DNA of 30,965 nt from a virus, in UHGV virus genome UHGV-0305615, one strand, 5' to 3'. The number at the start of each line of letters is the position of its first letter. Positions within the stretch are counted from its first letter, which is position 1. Positions 1-13,719 of this stretch are shown here, piece by piece. A program made the translations under genes and the position numbers. The notes beneath the pieces are model-generated. The model was given only the letters and a program-made list of their open reading frames with translations, was not told the DNA's origin and did no database searches.

Positions 1-591
1 TTTGCTCACACCGACGATGTAGCAGAACATGGTGGTCAGCTCCGCCGCCGCGCCCGATACGTCGTGCCCGTCTTCCTGTAACTGGTTCAGCAGATTCATC
101 AGCAGTGAGTTCTCCGTCAGGCCGAGAACACCAGACGGCGAGTGAATCAGGCTGCGGTAGCCGGGCTTCAGTGGGGCACTGTATTCTTTTTTGTCTTCCA
201 GCTTGATCGCCTCCATAATGGCGGGCATGAAGCCTGACAAGACCTTCTCCACTTTTGTTTCTTGTTGTCTTAAACGTTTCTCGCATTCAATGAAGTAGCG
301 TCGTACCTGACGACCTTTTTCATTACGCTCGACCATCGCCAGCTCTTTGGCTGTATCGAGGGTGAGGTGGTAGTCTTTTGCAGGACGGCCTCTGCCTATT
401 TTTTCCCGAACTTGGGAAATAATCATAAAGTCTTGATTTTCAACGAAACCATATTCAGCAATTCGTTCGACAATCCACGAAGCAAATCGCTTACCCACAT
501 CGAGGAAAGTGTGTAAATCACGGGCATTAACGAGAAGAGCGGTTTCGTTGGATATAGTGCCGTTGAATACGGGGATGAGTTGACTGGTCAT
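1..591 (-). CDS. Phage antirepressor (Ant/KilA-N-type), N-terminal 197 codons; 3' end lies beyond window start
   Basis: ATG at 591..589 with GGAGG 5 nt upstream; open frame runs to window edge; translation MTSQLIPVFNG...DYHLTLDTAKELAMVERNEKGRQVRRYFIECEKRL resembles remembered antirepressor N-terminal domains. Not in the supplied ORF track (no stop in window). Confidence 0.7.
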   Translation of the reverse strand, partial: MTSQLIPVFNGTISNETALLVNARDLHTFLDVGKRFASWIVERIAEYGFVENQDFMIISQVREKIGRGRPAKDYHLTLDTAKELAMVERNEKGRQVRRYFIECEKRLRQQETKVEKVLSGFMPAIMEAIKLEDKKEYSAPLKPGYRSLIHSPSGVLGLTENSLLMNLLNQLQEDGHDVSGAAAELTTMFCYIVGVSK

Positions 592-3392: not shown

Positions 3393-4210
3393 ACGTACAT
3401 ATCCTGTTTACGTGCCCAGTCAGGGCGTTTAATAATTTCCACGCCGCCCCATTCATCATTTATGCGGCATTCGTGATAGGTATTCAGATCCCGGCGGAAC
3501 AGAGCGTGCCCGGCATCGACATCCGGCGCATCCAGCTCGAACACGCGTACCGGATACCGACCACAATCAATGCTTTCGCTCACGGCAAGAAAGAAAAAAC
3601 CATGCGGTTGACCAGTAACCCTCATTGCGCCTTCGCGGTACATTGCGTCCTGCACGTGGTAGCGGAATTCCTCGATGTGGCGTGCAAAACGGTCCATATC
3701 TGCAACCTTTTTCACGTCGACGATCACGTTGTGCTCGTTCAGCCATTTGTCTGGACGAATGCGGCACAACTCACCCGTCTCTTCATCGTTCCAGTACATT
3801 GATGCTTCGCAGTAACCAGGTGCTTCCAGCATCCAGCGTGCCGCCGGATGAGCCATTGCGCTATCACGCATGAGCTCAAGTTTTCGCCACTGCTCGACAT
3901 CAAGTACCGTAATACCCATATCCGCCACATCACGAAGAAATGCTTCTTCGTCAGCTTTACCTTGTTTTGTCCGACGATCGAATTTCGGTGAAACGATGAA
4001 GCGTTTGTCAAACTCTCCAGGTTCCAGAAGCAGACAGTGCAGAGCAGTACCCATGTCCAGTGCAGACTTCTTCTCTTCGTCTTCCGGAGCAGCCTTCACC
4101 CATTTCAGAAGGGCAGGGTTCTTAGCCACCATATCTAGCTGCGACTTACTCACGCCGTCACCGGCGTGGTAGTCCTCGTTGCTGATATCGAAATAAATTC
4201 CCGGATTCAT
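3389..4210 (-). CDS. Phage exonuclease, PD-(D/E)XK family (YqaJ/RecE-like)
   Basis: 273 aa; RIRPDKW...VIVDVKKV resembles PD-(D/E)XK active-site motifs; paired with annealing protein. Confidence 0.7.
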   Translation of the reverse strand: MNPGIYFDISNEDYHAGDGVSKSQLDMVAKNPALLKWVKAAPEDEEKKSALDMGTALHCLLLEPGEFDKRFIVSPKFDRRTKQGKADEEAFLRDVADMGITVLDVEQWRKLELMRDSAMAHPAARWMLEAPGYCEASMYWNDEETGELCRIRPDKWLNEHNVIVDVKKVADMDRFARHIEEFRYHVQDAMYREGAMRVTGQPHGFFFLAVSESIDCGRYPVRVFELDAPDVDAGHALFRRDLNTYHECRINDEWGGVEIIKRPDWARKQDMYV

Positions 4211-4792: not shown

Positions 4793-4814
4793 TTACTTAC
4801 TGAAAAATATGATT

Positions 4815-5399
4815 TTATTGTTTGTTTTTTTCGTTCTGGTTGATGACAAATTCAATGTAACTTTCGATCTTTGCCTTCTCTGTTTCAGGTAACAATGCGT
4901 AGCGCGAGCGGTCATAGTTGATAGTTGCAGGGTCATGCGGATGAATCAGTAGTTCATATCCGTGACGCCCGAATGCAGATGCAACATTCTCCAGGGTGGA
5001 AATGGAAACGCTGACTTCATTGTTTAACAGGCGGCTTATTGTCACCTGGGCGACGCCGGATGCGCGGTGAAGTTTTCCCTGAGTTGAAAGGTCGCGGCTT
5101 TCACTCATCCAGCGTTCCAGGTTGTGAGCTGCCAGCTGACCAATGTCGCTTGGGCCGACAGGCTGAAAACCTTCCTGAGAAAGCGAGCGATCGATATCAA
5201 GCCAGTTACGGGGTTTATTGGCGGCAGCTTCAATTTTTCGCGCAACCTGGTCGCCGATAACCTTCTTGCCAAGAGCCCAGCGGTTTACCAGATTTGCCTG
5301 AGTTCCAAGTTTTTCTGCCATCCGCGTCTGAACACCATTGAATTCACGGTCGATCAAGTCGTTGAGATTTTGCCTGCGGACGTCCTGGATACTTTTCAT
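4815..5399 (-). CDS. Prophage repressor, CI-like, two HTH domains, no peptidase S24 (autocleavage) domain
   Basis: 194 aa; two XRE-like HTH stretches (MAEKLGTQANLVNRWALGKK... and ASGVAQVTISRLLNNEVSVSISTLENVAS...); divergent from Cro-like gene; dyad operators on both sides. Confidence 0.7.
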   Translation of the reverse strand: MKSIQDVRRQNLNDLIDREFNGVQTRMAEKLGTQANLVNRWALGKKVIGDQVARKIEAAANKPRNWLDIDRSLSQEGFQPVGPSDIGQLAAHNLERWMSESRDLSTQGKLHRASGVAQVTISRLLNNEVSVSISTLENVASAFGRHGYELLIHPHDPATINYDRSRYALLPETEKAKIESYIEFVINQNEKNKQ

Positions 5400-10451: not shown

Positions 10452-10466
10452 TTACCAAAACGGTAA
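10452..10466. promoter_or_regulatory. Predicted operator (dyad TTACCAAAACGGTAA) upstream of TerS
   Basis: Exact dyad between terminator and TerS start; extra TTACC half-site at 10469-10473. Confidence 0.5.
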
Positions 10467-12596: not shown

Positions 12597-12626
12597 AAAC
12601 AAAGCCAGCTCATCGGCTGGCTGTTT
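12597..12626. terminator. Bidirectional rho-independent terminator between convergent TerL and minus-strand ORF
   Basis: GCCAGC-TCATCG-GCTGGC hairpin (12604-12621) flanked by an A-run upstream and TGTTT downstream. Confidence 0.5.
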
Positions 12627-12638
12627 GTGACATGTCAC
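12627..12638. repeat. Perfect 12-bp palindrome GTGACATGTCAC (copy 2 of 3)
   Basis: Exact sequence. Confidence 0.6.
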
Positions 12639-12642
12639 GGTG

Positions 12643-13017
12643 TTACTTAATGGCATCAAATCCAGCGTTGATGGCTTCCGCAATATTGATGGCGCTTGTT
12701 TTATCGAAGTGCCCATTCTGAATAAGCGCCGCATGCAGGCATTGTAACTTCATGTTGTATAAGTGTTCGCTCATGTAATCATTATCACGTTTTTCCATTT
12801 CAGAATGTTGTGCTGTTATCCAGTCATGGAACGTAACGCTAGTACCATGGTCTTCGCTAAGAGTTAACCCGGCCAGTCCCTCACTCTGAATTACTTCGTA
12901 ATGCATTTCATTACCAGCAAAAACGCCATAAAAAACGCAGTCTTCAGCCTGAACGATACGAGAATATTTTAATGGCCATTCATTTAGATACTTAGCCAAC
13001 ATATCAATTGTTTTCAT
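12643..13017 (-). CDS. Hypothetical protein (124 aa), minus-strand insert between TerL and portal
   Basis: Complete ORF with AAGGTGAG RBS; lower GC than flanks; no recognised domain. Confidence 0.55.
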   Translation of the reverse strand: MKTIDMLAKYLNEWPLKYSRIVQAEDCVFYGVFAGNEMHYEVIQSEGLAGLTLSEDHGTSVTFHDWITAQHSEMEKRDNDYMSEHLYNMKLQCLHAALIQNGHFDKTSAINIAEAINAGFDAIK

Positions 13018-13028
13018 GATCTCACCTT

Positions 13029-13052
13029 AAAAAAATGCCCGGCGACCCGGGC
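13029..13052 (-). terminator. Rho-independent terminator on minus strand between tRNA and the 124-aa ORF
   Basis: GCCCGG-CGAC-CCGGGC hairpin followed on the minus strand by a T-run (A-run 13029-13035 on plus). Confidence 0.5.
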
Positions 13053-13215
13053 GAACTGGAAGCAATGAGTTATGCCTTCCGTGGCTGTACTGGTTTACAG
13101 CATGAAGTCATCGCAATGGCGTCCTGCTGTAAAAAGGGCGGTGATAGTTCTTCAAGGGAAACCATCACCGCCAAGCACCTGGAACTTCTGGCATCACGGT
13201 CCTTAGGCGTGATTC

Positions 13216-13292
13216 TGGCGTGGCATGCAGGATTCGAACCTGCGACCAACCGCTTAGAAGGCGGTTGCTCTGTCCGACTGAGCTAATGCCAC
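13216..13292 (-). tRNA. tRNA-Arg (anticodon UCU)
   Basis: 77-nt minus-strand sequence GTGGCATTAGCTCAGTCGGACAGAGCAACCGCCTTCTAAGCGGTTGGTCGCAGGTTCGAATCCTGCATGCCACGCCA folds as a cloverleaf: 7-bp acceptor stem, GCTC/GAGC D-stem, ACCGC/GCGGT anticodon stem with loop CTTCTAA, GCAGG/CCTGC T-stem with TTCGAAT loop, encoded CCA. Confidence 0.9.
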
Positions 13293-13614
13293 AACGCTGA
13301 GAGCACTTAGCCTGTTAAGGCACCACACTTTGTCGCGGCTCCATAAATGCTCTCATCGTTGTACCCTCGTCTCTTCCGAGGCGTCACACCGAATCGCCGG
13401 GATGGTGAATCCCCGTGCGCGGAATAAAACCGCTCGACTTGCACATTCCGGCTACCTGGTTCGTTTGCCCGAGCAAGGGAGGGTGCCCCTTAAACGTATC
13501 CAGACCGCTATCGTCGCATGTGCCATACGCCGTACTGCTCAAAATAAAAGCTCACTCCACCTGTTCAATTTAACGACAAGCCAGTCAGGTTAGTAACCGG
13601 AATGAACTTTTTGG

Positions 13615-13629
13615 TTACCTGAAAGGTAA
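13615..13629. promoter_or_regulatory. Predicted operator (dyad TTACCTGAAAGGTAA) between tRNA leader and virion genes
   Basis: Exact dyad; a leftward TTGACA -35 (rc of 13646-13651) lies 17 bp away. Confidence 0.5.
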
Positions 13630-13719
13630 TAATTCGTGCGTTAAATGTCAACAGTCTACGATAAATAAATCATATGTGGTTAAATTGGTAATAATTTAAT
13701 TGCGTACGGAGTCATTGAT

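Follow-up and report, generated by a model that had tools for sequence, protein, structure and literature searches.

Our analysis of the window, a stretch of 30,965 nucleotides from the virus genome UHGV-0305615, suggests that positions 12603–13651 on balance form one minus-strand accessory transcription unit of a phiV10/epsilon15-like prophage. The proposed parts are, in order, a promoter with its operator, a structured leader RNA, tRNA-Arg(UCU), terminator 1, terminator 2, a cargo ORF behind a Shine-Dalgarno sequence and ATG, and terminator 3; this order is conserved in phiV10/epsilon15-like phages from at least four host genera, Escherichia, Salmonella, Klebsiella and Enterobacter. We predict the promoter, the operator, the terminators and the read-through from the sequence. 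The features are as follows.

13623–13651, minus strand: promoter-like sequence, TTGACA (13646–13651), 17-nt spacer and TACCTT (13623–13628), read from the sequence
13615–13629, no strand assigned: operator-like dyad TTACC-N5-GGTAA, lying across the -10 hexamer and the start site that is predicted
13355–13535, minus strand: structured RNA core with five helices including two pseudoknots (34-sequence alignment A5, covariance model R1)
13293–13361, minus strand: leader 3' domain, helix CAACG-AU-GAGAGCA/TGCTCTC-AG-CGTTG around a variable insert (from alignments including A3; no formal count)
13216–13292, minus strand: tRNA-Arg(UCU) with encoded CCA (ARAGORN and Rfam; tRNA-Arg annotation in relatives)
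13193–13213, minus strand: trailer hairpin ATCACG-N9-CGTGAT (97.6% of cells paired in 28 sequences)
13130–13172, minus strand: predicted terminator 1, hairpin with a 14-bp stem (13137–13172) and T5 (CTTTTT)
13053–13129, minus strand: spacer between the terminators, with a block AGCAGGACGCCATTGCGATGACTTCATGCTGTAAACC that hardly varies and a hairpin GGAAG/CTTCC that does (from alignments)
13029–13052, minus strand: predicted terminator 2, GCCCGGGTCGCCGGGC (13052 to 13037) with six G-C pairs, A, and T7 (13029–13035)
13021–13028, minus strand: Shine-Dalgarno sequence AAGGTGAG, abutting the terminator 2 U-tract, 3 nt before the ATG
12643–13017, minus strand: cargo ORF, 124 aa, acidic, phrog_4846, ATG at 13017, an allele with an in-frame 15-aa deletion
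12603–12622, minus strand: predicted terminator 3, AGCCAGCCGATGAGCTGGCT, 7 bp with a T-rich tail, closing the unit across from the TerL 3' end

We propose that the prophage repressor would shut the unit promoter, and that the unit would be transcribed early after infection or induction. The tRNA would be freed by RNase P and 3' processing and would add to AGA decoding capacity. Terminators 1 and 2 would stop most transcripts, and the cargo would be translated solely from those reading through both. Only a small and constant share of unit transcription would then yield cargo, unless read-through is increased by the leader RNA. The leader RNA itself may be an independent functional module, common to the early operons of lambdoid and P1-like phages, and the two roles that rank highest for it are a cis element that would let RNA polymerase resist terminators and a trans-acting, stable RNA made early.

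A preliminary description of this region had reported a tRNA, a terminator, a ribosome binding site and an ORF as an insert between TerL and portal. All four elements were found where it had placed them, and the tRNA, the terminator and the small acidic gene are real and fairly ordinary; the tRNA and the ORF on their own would be routine annotation. The minus-strand unit is, however, a conserved feature of phiV10/epsilon15-like phages rather than an insert peculiar to this one, and the conserved structured RNA at its head had been missed.

Putative promoter and operator

The TTGACA-17-TACCTT sequence lies about 325 nt upstream of the tRNA and is the sole conserved promoter-like sequence upstream of it, with TTGACA and ATTACC kept in all seven aligned phages, which come from four host genera. 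The -10 hexamer TACCTT is weak, and a strict consensus promoter scan made no call at the site because this hexamer matches just three of six positions (TAnnnT). The operator-like dyad occurs in 11 copies in the window (0.47 expected), two of which flank an HTH_3 repressor-like gene at 4815–5399, and an equivalent dyad in the epsilon15 record is annotated as a repressor binding site. The unit is thus probably repressor-controlled: since its sole promoter-like site is overlapped by an operator-like dyad, it would be off in the lysogen and transcribed early, once derepressed.

Predicted terminators

Terminators 1–3 are predicted to be intrinsic, each combining a GC-rich hairpin with a U-tract. 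The hairpin and U7 of the one terminator in the preliminary description, at 13029–13052, were recovered, and compensatory changes show that pairing in the hairpin is under selection: 97.6% of cells are paired, and two stem pairs have both partners substituted, in 9 and 11 of the 28 sequences, as in the change from GCCCGG/CCGGGC to GCCCAC/GTGGGC. That hairpin is nevertheless the second of two in tandem, the longer terminator 1 having been overlooked; it lies about 45 nt after the tRNA and shows compensatory changes at two stem positions. The conserved trailer hairpin ahead of it is also present in aligned phages that have no tRNA. Terminator 3 is a conserved flank of the cargo cassette, and phiV10 annotates a terminator there on the other strand. 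We considered and rejected a promoter on either strand of the conserved block that separates terminators 1 and 2, as inspection gave no acceptable -35/-10 spacing and the scan no call.

A structured RNA at the head of the unit

The core of the leader RNA spans about 160–180 nt, and it is covariation alone that argues for its structure; the stability of its single-sequence fold is not unusual (z = -1.25). In the 34 sequences of alignment A5, 94.8% of cells are paired, compared with 26–45% when partners are slid, and 79 cells are changed on both sides versus 27 in shuffles, none of 500 shuffles reaching the observed values. The strand was set by G-U pairs. This pattern of substitution indicates that base pairing is under selection in the leader RNA, as in terminators 1 and 2. 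At the leader core the covariance model R1 reaches 136.7 bits, and it finds one copy in the window. Rfam 15, scanned at E<=5 in the window and at E<=1 in P1, cdtI, mEp390 and Stenotrophomonas phage BUCT708, has no family that matches the motif.

The 3' helix of the leader ends exactly at the 5' end of the tRNA, and it occurs in a compensatory form, GTAGCTCAC/GTGAGCTAC, in Klebsiella phage ST11-OXA245phi3.2. Two further pairings were discarded. A helix joining the 5' and 3' ends of the core (columns 8–10 with 204–206) is just 56% paired, and a long-range pairing given by RNAalifold (columns 12–14 with 29–31) conflicts with a local hairpin of the RNA, designated P1, which we preferred because its pair 15–27 goes from G-C to A-U in 16 of the 34 sequences. 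A protein-coding reading of 13293–13700 was also rejected, given the many indels in its variable blocks. A 13-codon ORF from the ATG in CAACGATG is not conserved; it matches Tyrion gp54 only because other sequence stands in place of the tRNA there.

Distribution of the leader RNA

An exact 19-mer search found the leader RNA in 1,840 of 5,426 complete E. coli genomes, about a third, in prophages, and no annotated feature lay under it at any of the 40 E. coli matches listed. Model R1 matches phage P1, cdtI and Stx2 phages. In lambdoid phages the motif lies downstream of CI-type repressor genes, and at the three lambdoid loci examined it stands right after the cI terminator, at about +45–50 from a pL-like promoter; in the present unit it lies about 80 nt from the operator-overlapped promoter. 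In P1 the motif (135 bits) lies between trnI and ban, about 2.3 kb into the ban operon and after a terminator-like hairpin. The motif is present once per locus, though one contig holds two tandem copies. Most lambdoid loci have no canonical intrinsic terminator in the 1–4 kb that follow the motif, and some have a strong terminator about 130 nt after its core. The lambdoid carriers examined have no annotated N protein, and cdtI has a Q-like protein. A literature search by sequence string found no paper, and nothing relevant came from searches on ban of P1, on RNase III and epsilon15, or on new RNA motifs in prophages.

The isolated and sequenced phage epsilon15 has lost most of the leader RNA and the 5' arm of terminator 1, and it has no tRNA; it retains terminator 2 and the cargo. 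This combination implies that the leader RNA is dispensable for the phage and presumably for the cargo.

Candidate roles of the leader RNA

It is possible, and we suggest it tentatively, that the unit chiefly makes the leader RNA, as a stable small RNA of the early phase that would act in trans on a target in the host or the phage. Either RNase P, cleaving at the tRNA, or termination at terminator 1 would release it, and the cargo would be expressed weakly and incidentally. The elaborate architecture, with invariant loops and two pseudoknots, is typical of partner-binding RNAs, and the motif is portable, standing as a module in three genomic contexts that are unrelated to one another. The loci with a strong terminator shortly after the core, the contig with tandem copies and the exact junction of the 3' helix with the tRNA would all be consistent with a released RNA. 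However, most lambdoid loci are without such a terminator, which implies an mRNA leader there; the sequence suggests no target; and the conserved Shine-Dalgarno socket argues for selection on cargo translation.

A somewhat more doubtful reading is that the leader RNA acts in cis as a processive antiterminator, functionally analogous to HK022/HK639 put, which once transcribed would modify RNA polymerase and so allow read-through of terminators 1 and 2 into the cargo and would play the same part for the early left operon of lambdoid phages. This would refine the read-through step of our preferred explanation. The motif lies in a leader just past a repressor-controlled early promoter, the position of putL in HK639, and the absence of an annotated N from the lambdoid carriers examined (leaving aside the Q-like protein of cdtI) would suit this reading. 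In phiV10/epsilon15-like phages the motif is followed by two conserved terminators and then by a promoterless gene, and the strong terminator close behind it in some lambdoid loci points the same way. Against this, no sequence or structure homology to put was found: model R1 gave no match at E<=1 in HK022 24000–31000, where putL and putR are expected, or at E<=10 in HK639 28000–49576, which includes an annotated putL-like RNA; homology to the put RNA of either phage was therefore rejected. There is also one copy per locus with no putR-like partner, most lambdoid loci offer no canonical intrinsic terminator within 1–4 kb to be read through, the terminator-like hairpin of P1 precedes the motif, which could not have aided its passage, and epsilon15 keeps its cargo behind terminator 2 without the motif.

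More broadly, and with equal reservation, the double-pseudoknot RNA could represent a new class of phage regulatory RNA that acts in cis to render E. coli RNA polymerase terminator-resistant, a third put-like solution, though unrelated to put in sequence, serving lambdoid phages without annotated N, P1-like phage-plasmids and phiV10/epsilon15-like phages and, in the present unit, letting the promoterless cargo behind two terminators be expressed. If the leader RNA does act on transcription, it would bear on how lambdoid phages without annotated N traverse their early operons. It is a strongly covarying RNA with no Rfam family at the head of repressor-controlled early operons, including those of Stx2, cdt and P1-like elements. 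Under either role it is an abundant and directly testable RNA without an assigned function in the best-studied bacterium.

The cargo gene and its expression

The cargo ORF belongs to a real, conserved gene family with 104 homologues, and its acidity and lower GC, both remarked on previously, hold: by our own count it has 18 D/E against 9 K/R, and its GC of 0.41–0.44 compares with 0.51–0.58 over TerL and 0.55–0.56 over the tRNA and leader. Residues 1–124 match positions 1–139 of the 140 in the phrog_4846 profile (E = 8.8e-72), and the gap in this match is the 15-aa deletion, the 124-aa allele being a rare form (five contigs) that differs by a 45-bp in-frame deletion from the common one of 139–142 aa. 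An AlphaFold2 model of the protein (mean pLDDT 79.7) had no informative fold match, and the relationship to anti-defence or DNA-mimic families that had been raised as worth checking did not emerge from it.

The ribosome binding site is also as previously described, AAGGTGAG standing right behind the U-tract and 3 nt ahead of the ATG. The junction terminator-U7-AAGGTGA-ATG is identical ahead of at least eight unrelated cargo ORFs, and the cargo is swapped exactly between the Shine-Dalgarno sequence and the stop codon. The claim that the ORF has no room for its own promoter stands, since the Shine-Dalgarno sequence abuts the U-tract and the stretch from the terminators to the ORF showed no promoter-like site. 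This lack of room, together with the common junction before at least eight cargos, makes read-through the simplest route to expression, and cargo expression most likely would depend on polymerase passing both terminators, perhaps with help from the leader RNA. To this extent the attenuator-like arrangement proposed earlier survives; an attenuator in the classical sense is not supported, as inspection revealed no alternative antiterminator hairpin. Inspection of 13053–13215 found no CCGGGC-like complement, and terminators 1 and 2 form independent hairpins in the MFE fold.

We consider it improbable that the cargo is instead driven by an unrecognised promoter of its own, one that overlaps terminator 2 or the preceding hairpin or is read by another sigma or phage factor, with terminators 1 and 2 insulating it from strong tRNA transcription. 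Such a promoter would suit an autonomous moron, with which the low GC and terminator 3 agree, and unit variants with another junction carry a promoter-like GTGACT-17-TATACT directly after terminator 2 (our own reading of the alignment). However, here no promoter-like site was found, the Shine-Dalgarno sequence abuts the U-tract and leaves just 3 nt before the ATG, and a transcript starting within the U-tract would miss it. Phage PAS61 keeps the ORF intact despite a 33-nt deletion spanning the variable spacer hairpin before terminator 2, and as unrelated cargos have the upstream sequence in common, any promoter would belong to the socket and not to the cargo. In the variants with the other junction, the same promoter-like sequence would amount to a self-promoted cargo.

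With read-through as the preferred route, phiV10/epsilon15-like phages would possess a fixed expression socket (terminator-U7-SD-ATG ... terminator) that accepts one unrelated accessory gene in place of another, in effect a promoterless moron whose dosage would be set by terminator read-through.

The tRNA

A single ARAGORN call at 13216–13292 on the minus strand gives a cloverleaf tRNA-Arg with anticodon TCT at position 35. The covariance-model scan bears out the earlier claim of a complete tRNA, with Rfam RF00005 scoring 73.3 bits, above its gathering score of 29, and model positions 1–71 of 71 matched. The same gene is present in six of the eight relatives scanned and absent from 12 of 39 units, and it is thus an optional passenger and not part of the unit core.

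AGA makes up 11.4% of the Arg codons in this phage and occurs at 6.8 per 1000 codons overall, the latter about three times what we take to be the host value, and it is concentrated in right-arm early genes and tail genes. TerL, portal and capsid have zero AGA. The tRNA plausibly serves the AGA-rich phage genes. The cargo ORF has neither AGA nor AGG codons, so that tRNA and cargo would not be functionally coupled through codon use.

Phage tRNAs are reported to counter anticodon nucleases, and this one might mainly be an anti-defence spare, standing in for host tRNA-Arg that host nucleases cleave or deplete, and not a codon supplement; we regard this as quite unlikely. Its acceptor and anticodon stems differ from those of E. 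coli argU (63 of 77 positions identical), as a nuclease-escape variant might, and the presumed ArgRS identity elements A20, C35 and U36 are all retained in our own alignment. However, its anticodon loop, like D-loop A20, is the same as in argU, so that an anticodon-loop nuclease would cut both, the AGA enrichment over the presumed host value is reason enough for the tRNA, and 12 of 39 units manage without it.

Comparison with known systems

Phage argU-like tRNA-Arg(UCU) genes with the same anticodon, cloverleaf and encoded CCA occur in the phiV10 group, SPN9TCW and a Klebsiella prophage, and the records of relatives already annotate tRNA-Arg at the same position; cyanophage S-RIM2 has similar tRNA-Arg(UCU) genes. 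The tRNA described here has no essential difference from these, other than being an optional passenger of a larger conserved unit.

The cargo resembles a moron in its low GC, its orientation opposite to its neighbours, its own terminator and the substitution of unrelated genes in relatives (at least eight cargo families). A moron is, however, an autonomous cassette of promoter, gene and terminator with deviant GC, whereas this cargo appears to lack its own promoter and, unlike morons, plugs into a fixed terminator-U7-SD socket, its upstream signals being common to all cargos.

The ban operon of P1, which is C1-controlled and comprises a dicF-like region, tRNAs, tciABC, trnI and ban, contains the same RNA motif and, like the present unit, is a repressor-controlled early operon mixing tRNA genes, small RNA-like elements and protein genes. 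The arrangement differs, as in P1 the motif stands between a tRNA and a helicase gene, with no terminator-like hairpin separating it from the latter, whereas here the motif precedes a tRNA and two terminators.

Like put, the leader RNA is cis-encoded and structured and lies in the leader of a repressor-controlled early operon in phages without annotated N. A put RNA suppresses termination and binds the zinc-binding domain of the RNA polymerase beta' subunit. Put RNA is about 70 nt with two stem-loops (PMC9378689), whereas the leader RNA has a core of about 160 nt with two pseudoknots and a single copy per locus. In the unit described here terminators lie downstream of the leader RNA, as they do for put, and antitermination would be a candidate role for it.

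Organization and probable control of the unit

The window is an E. coli prophage of the phiV10/epsilon15-like type (genus Uetakevirus), and the 1.6 kb around the finding shares 98% identity with many E. coli chromosomes and 95-98% with phages HEMP4, phiV10, and PAS61. Of greatest interest is a result from just beyond the region covered by the preliminary description: an abundant structured RNA with neither an Rfam family nor an annotation, found at the head of this unit and of many other early phage operons. A consensus scan for terminator-like hairpins on the strand of the tRNA, on its downstream side, found three.

Features of the unit in the window
TTGACA 13646-13651 and TACCTT 13623-13628, minus: candidate promoter TTGACA-17-TACCTT, conserved in the alignment
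13615-13629: operator-like palindrome TTACC-N5-GGTAA, overlapping the candidate promoter
13355-13535, minus: core of the leader RNA
13216-13292, minus: tRNA-Arg(TCT), the sole tRNA found by ARAGORN; Rfam tRNA model 73.3 bits (gathering score 29)
13172..13137, minus: terminator 1, 14-bp stem and T5, overlooked in the preliminary description
13052..13037, minus: terminator 2, six G-C pairs and T7, the terminator first described
Directly against the U-tract of terminator 2, minus: Shine-Dalgarno (SD) sequence AAGGTGAG, from sequence reading
ATG at 13017, minus: cargo ORF of 124 aa, opening behind AAGGTGAG
12622..12603, minus: terminator 3 from the consensus scan, positioned after the ORF

The tRNA-Arg(UCU) first described was confirmed by both ARAGORN and its covariance-model score, and the intrinsic terminator, the ribosome-binding site and the 124-aa ORF were all present; GC content was lower in the ORF, as had been claimed, at 0.41-0.44. 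The finding is real; most of its named parts are already known or ordinary, with a tRNA annotated in relatives and an ORF that codes for a hypothetical protein.

The alignment of relatives contained no conserved promoter adjoining the tRNA, since the sequence just upstream varies from phage to phage in both length and content. The dyad TTACC-N5-GGTAA has 11 copies in the window, where 0.47 would be expected (4681, 4743, 5455, 5503, 5840, 7762, 7824, 10452, 10470, 13615, and 30820), mostly in intergenic or promoter regions, with two copies beside an HTH_3 repressor-like gene (4815-5399), and the same dyad is marked as a repressor site in the epsilon15 record. As read from these sites, the unit would be kept silent in the lysogen and be expressed early once repression is lifted. 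The dyads resemble scattered operators of a single regulator, much as P1 has many C1 operators; the copies at 10452 and 10470 fall within the first part of the small-terminase gene. The early-left region of the prophage also contains a full-length Rfam match to sRNA-Xcc1 (RF02221; 632-721, minus strand; 64.8 bits, gathering score 53).

Cargo exchange and proposed terminator read-through

Alignment of the window with phiV10, PAS61, and one E. coli prophage revealed near-identity on either side of the slot behind terminator 2; identity stops exactly behind ...AAGGTGAGATC and restarts at TAACACCGTGACATG..., and the phiV10 slot holds an Sf6 gp66-like ORF unrelated to the window cargo. Among the loci collected, the junction hairpin-T6-8-SD-ATG was found in 39 units, 12 of them without the tRNA, followed by at least eight unrelated cargo families. 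The cargo slot is a socket. Window-type junctions leave no room for a cargo promoter behind the terminator, as previously claimed for the window ORF; variants with another junction (T6-7, then TGCCTG) have, in our reading of the alignment, a promoter-like GTGACT-17-TATACT after terminator 2.

Across 28 non-identical units, terminator 2 was 97.6% paired, with both partners altered at two of its pairs, in 9 and 11 sequences (stem forms GCCCGG/CCGGGC, GCCCAC/GTGGGC, and GCCCGC/GCGGGC), while terminator 1 kept its first eight pairs, with compensatory changes at two of them. Terminator read-through, proposed earlier as an attenuator-like arrangement, is the best available explanation for how the cargo would be expressed, and has comparative support. 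Inspection of the unit sequence and fold found no segment complementary to the 5' arm of terminator 2, and on this inspection a classical alternative-hairpin attenuator is not supported. The arrangement is two terminators and a fixed SD socket.

Klebsiella phage BUCT711 (about 1640-1900) has an insert of about 240 bp that separates terminator 1 from the conserved spacer block, indicating a second insertion point within the unit; by our reading of the alignment, this insert holds a small ORF preceded by an SD of its own. For SPN9TCW_003 (phage SPN9TCW, locus positions 788-1294), the start is annotated ahead of terminator 2, but the conserved SD-ATG socket points to a shorter ORF. In phiV10 (NC_007804, locus positions 2138-2389), the plus-strand CDS PhiV10p04 is annotated across the tRNA, itself unannotated. 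Both are probable annotation errors.

The cargo ORF matched phrog_4846 (E = 9e-72), a family of unknown function; Pfam and PADLOC models gave no match. Among 5.8 billion proteins searched there were 104 homologues, most of 139-142 aa and all named ones from Enterobacteriaceae; 29 residues were invariant over 30 homologues with identity down to 56%. Distant Klebsiella members are likewise found in this slot, with portal on one side and TerL on the other. A 45-bp in-frame deletion (12780-12800) has removed 15 residues from the window allele; in our reading of the alignment AAAAAG repeats flank it, and a Ser-to-Arg change (AGT to CGT) goes with it. This allele type was present on only five contigs, and the deletion may mark either a decaying allele or a shortened functional one.

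The tRNA and AGA codon use

Over the 32 ORFs of the window, AGA accounted for 6.8 per 1000 codons (11.4% of Arg codons) and AGG for 5.5 per 1000 (9.3%); the host uses AGA at about 2 per 1000. AGA was concentrated in right-arm early genes (up to 35 per 1000) and in tail and tailspike genes, and was absent from TerL, portal, capsid, and cargo. The tRNA was identical at 63 of 77 positions to the E. coli argU sequence; in our alignment the differences were confined to the acceptor and anticodon stems, with A20, the anticodon loop, and CCA unchanged. Codon supplementation is the simplest role for the tRNA, and an anti-nuclease role is not favoured given the argU-identical anticodon loop. About 65 Synechococcus cyanophage records (S-RIM2) have a tRNA-Arg that shares 93.5% identity with it over 62 nt, striking for such distant phages, yet probably just conservation of tRNA-Arg(UCU).

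A widespread structured leader RNA

The approximately 325 nt from the candidate promoter to the tRNA comprise conserved blocks between stretches of variable length, and had no Rfam match at E<=5. An alignment of 34 sequences, every pair less than 93% identical, supports hairpin P1, helices P2, P4, and P5, and two pseudoknots, one invariant (GCACAU/AUGUGC) and one changing from CACC/GGUG to AACC/GGUU in three sequences. Pairing reached 94.8% of cells over the whole structure and 97-100% in the six accepted helices, against 26-45% with partners slid; 79 cells changed on both sides against 27 after shuffling, and none of 500 shuffles matched the observed values. Frequent G-U pairs identify the window minus strand as the transcribed one. 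The case for the structure rests on covariation, because the single-sequence fold was not unusually stable (z = -1.25).

The invariant 19-mer GGTAGCCGGAATGTGCAAG matched at least 120 viral contigs and 24 loci in species-representative genomes, nearly all within about 12 Enterobacterales genera. BLAST and the covariance model also located the RNA outside window-type units, in P1 and P7 (between trnI and ban), phage cdtI, Stx2a- and Stx2c-converting phages, mEp390, and two phages recorded as Stenotrophomonas phages. The motif occurred in 1,840 of 5,426 complete E. coli genomes, where 554 of its places were plasmid-borne, and none of 40 E. coli sites among the matches listed had an annotated feature beneath it.

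Genomic context of the motif (160 loci)
phiV10/epsilon15-type unit: 47
Directly after a tRNA (P1-like): 18
At most 450 nt downstream of a same-strand ORF: 77
Other context: 15
Too near the contig end: 3

The S24 peptidase catalytic-serine motif was present in 53 of the 77 upstream ORFs, and Pfam assigned HTH_3 plus Peptidase_S24 to three of six examined, Peptidase_S24 only to one, and HTH_3 only to two. At three repressor-linked loci, a pL-like promoter follows the cI terminator and the RNA core starts about 45-50 nt further on. Phage cdtI has a Q-like protein and no annotated N.

Several loci carry additional RNA features. One viral contig contains tandem same-strand copies about 640 nt apart (3990-4155 and 4797-4960; 138.6 and 159.0 bits). 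Directly after the motif in Stenotrophomonas phage BUCT708 (2631-2750) is a sub-threshold RprA-like Rfam match (50.2 bits, gathering 70) ending in a terminator, GCCCGGGCGCCCCGGGC-AT7, that resembles window terminator 2. In cdtI (277-465, minus strand), C4 antisense RNA (68.4 bits) adjoins isrK (60 bits) in a stretch assigned by annotation to the 3' part of orf44. Across phages, the P2 and terminator 1 hairpins both show a recurrent UCCCUUG-like loop motif.

Possible roles of the leader RNA

Two tentative readings of the leader carry similar, rather low probability: a stable trans-acting RNA, slightly the likelier, and an antiterminator, which would refine the read-through explanation. Strong intrinsic terminators follow the motif in only some lambdoid loci, and the P1 motif sits deep within the ban operon, both of which argue against obligatory antitermination. 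So does epsilon15 (AY150271, 1528-1620), which has no tRNA, keeps only a small part of the motif, and is missing the 5' arm of terminator 1 owing to a deletion between copies of the 13-nt repeat TTCCCTTGATGCT, located in the P2 loop and the terminator 1 loop, and yet retains its cargo behind terminator 2. Our weighting of both roles follows from these observations together with the mismatch to put, an RNA of about 70 nt with two hairpins (PMC9378689): the leader is positioned like putL in HK639, in favor of antitermination, whereas its covariance model (R1) found no match in HK022 (24000-31000) or HK639 (28000-49576).
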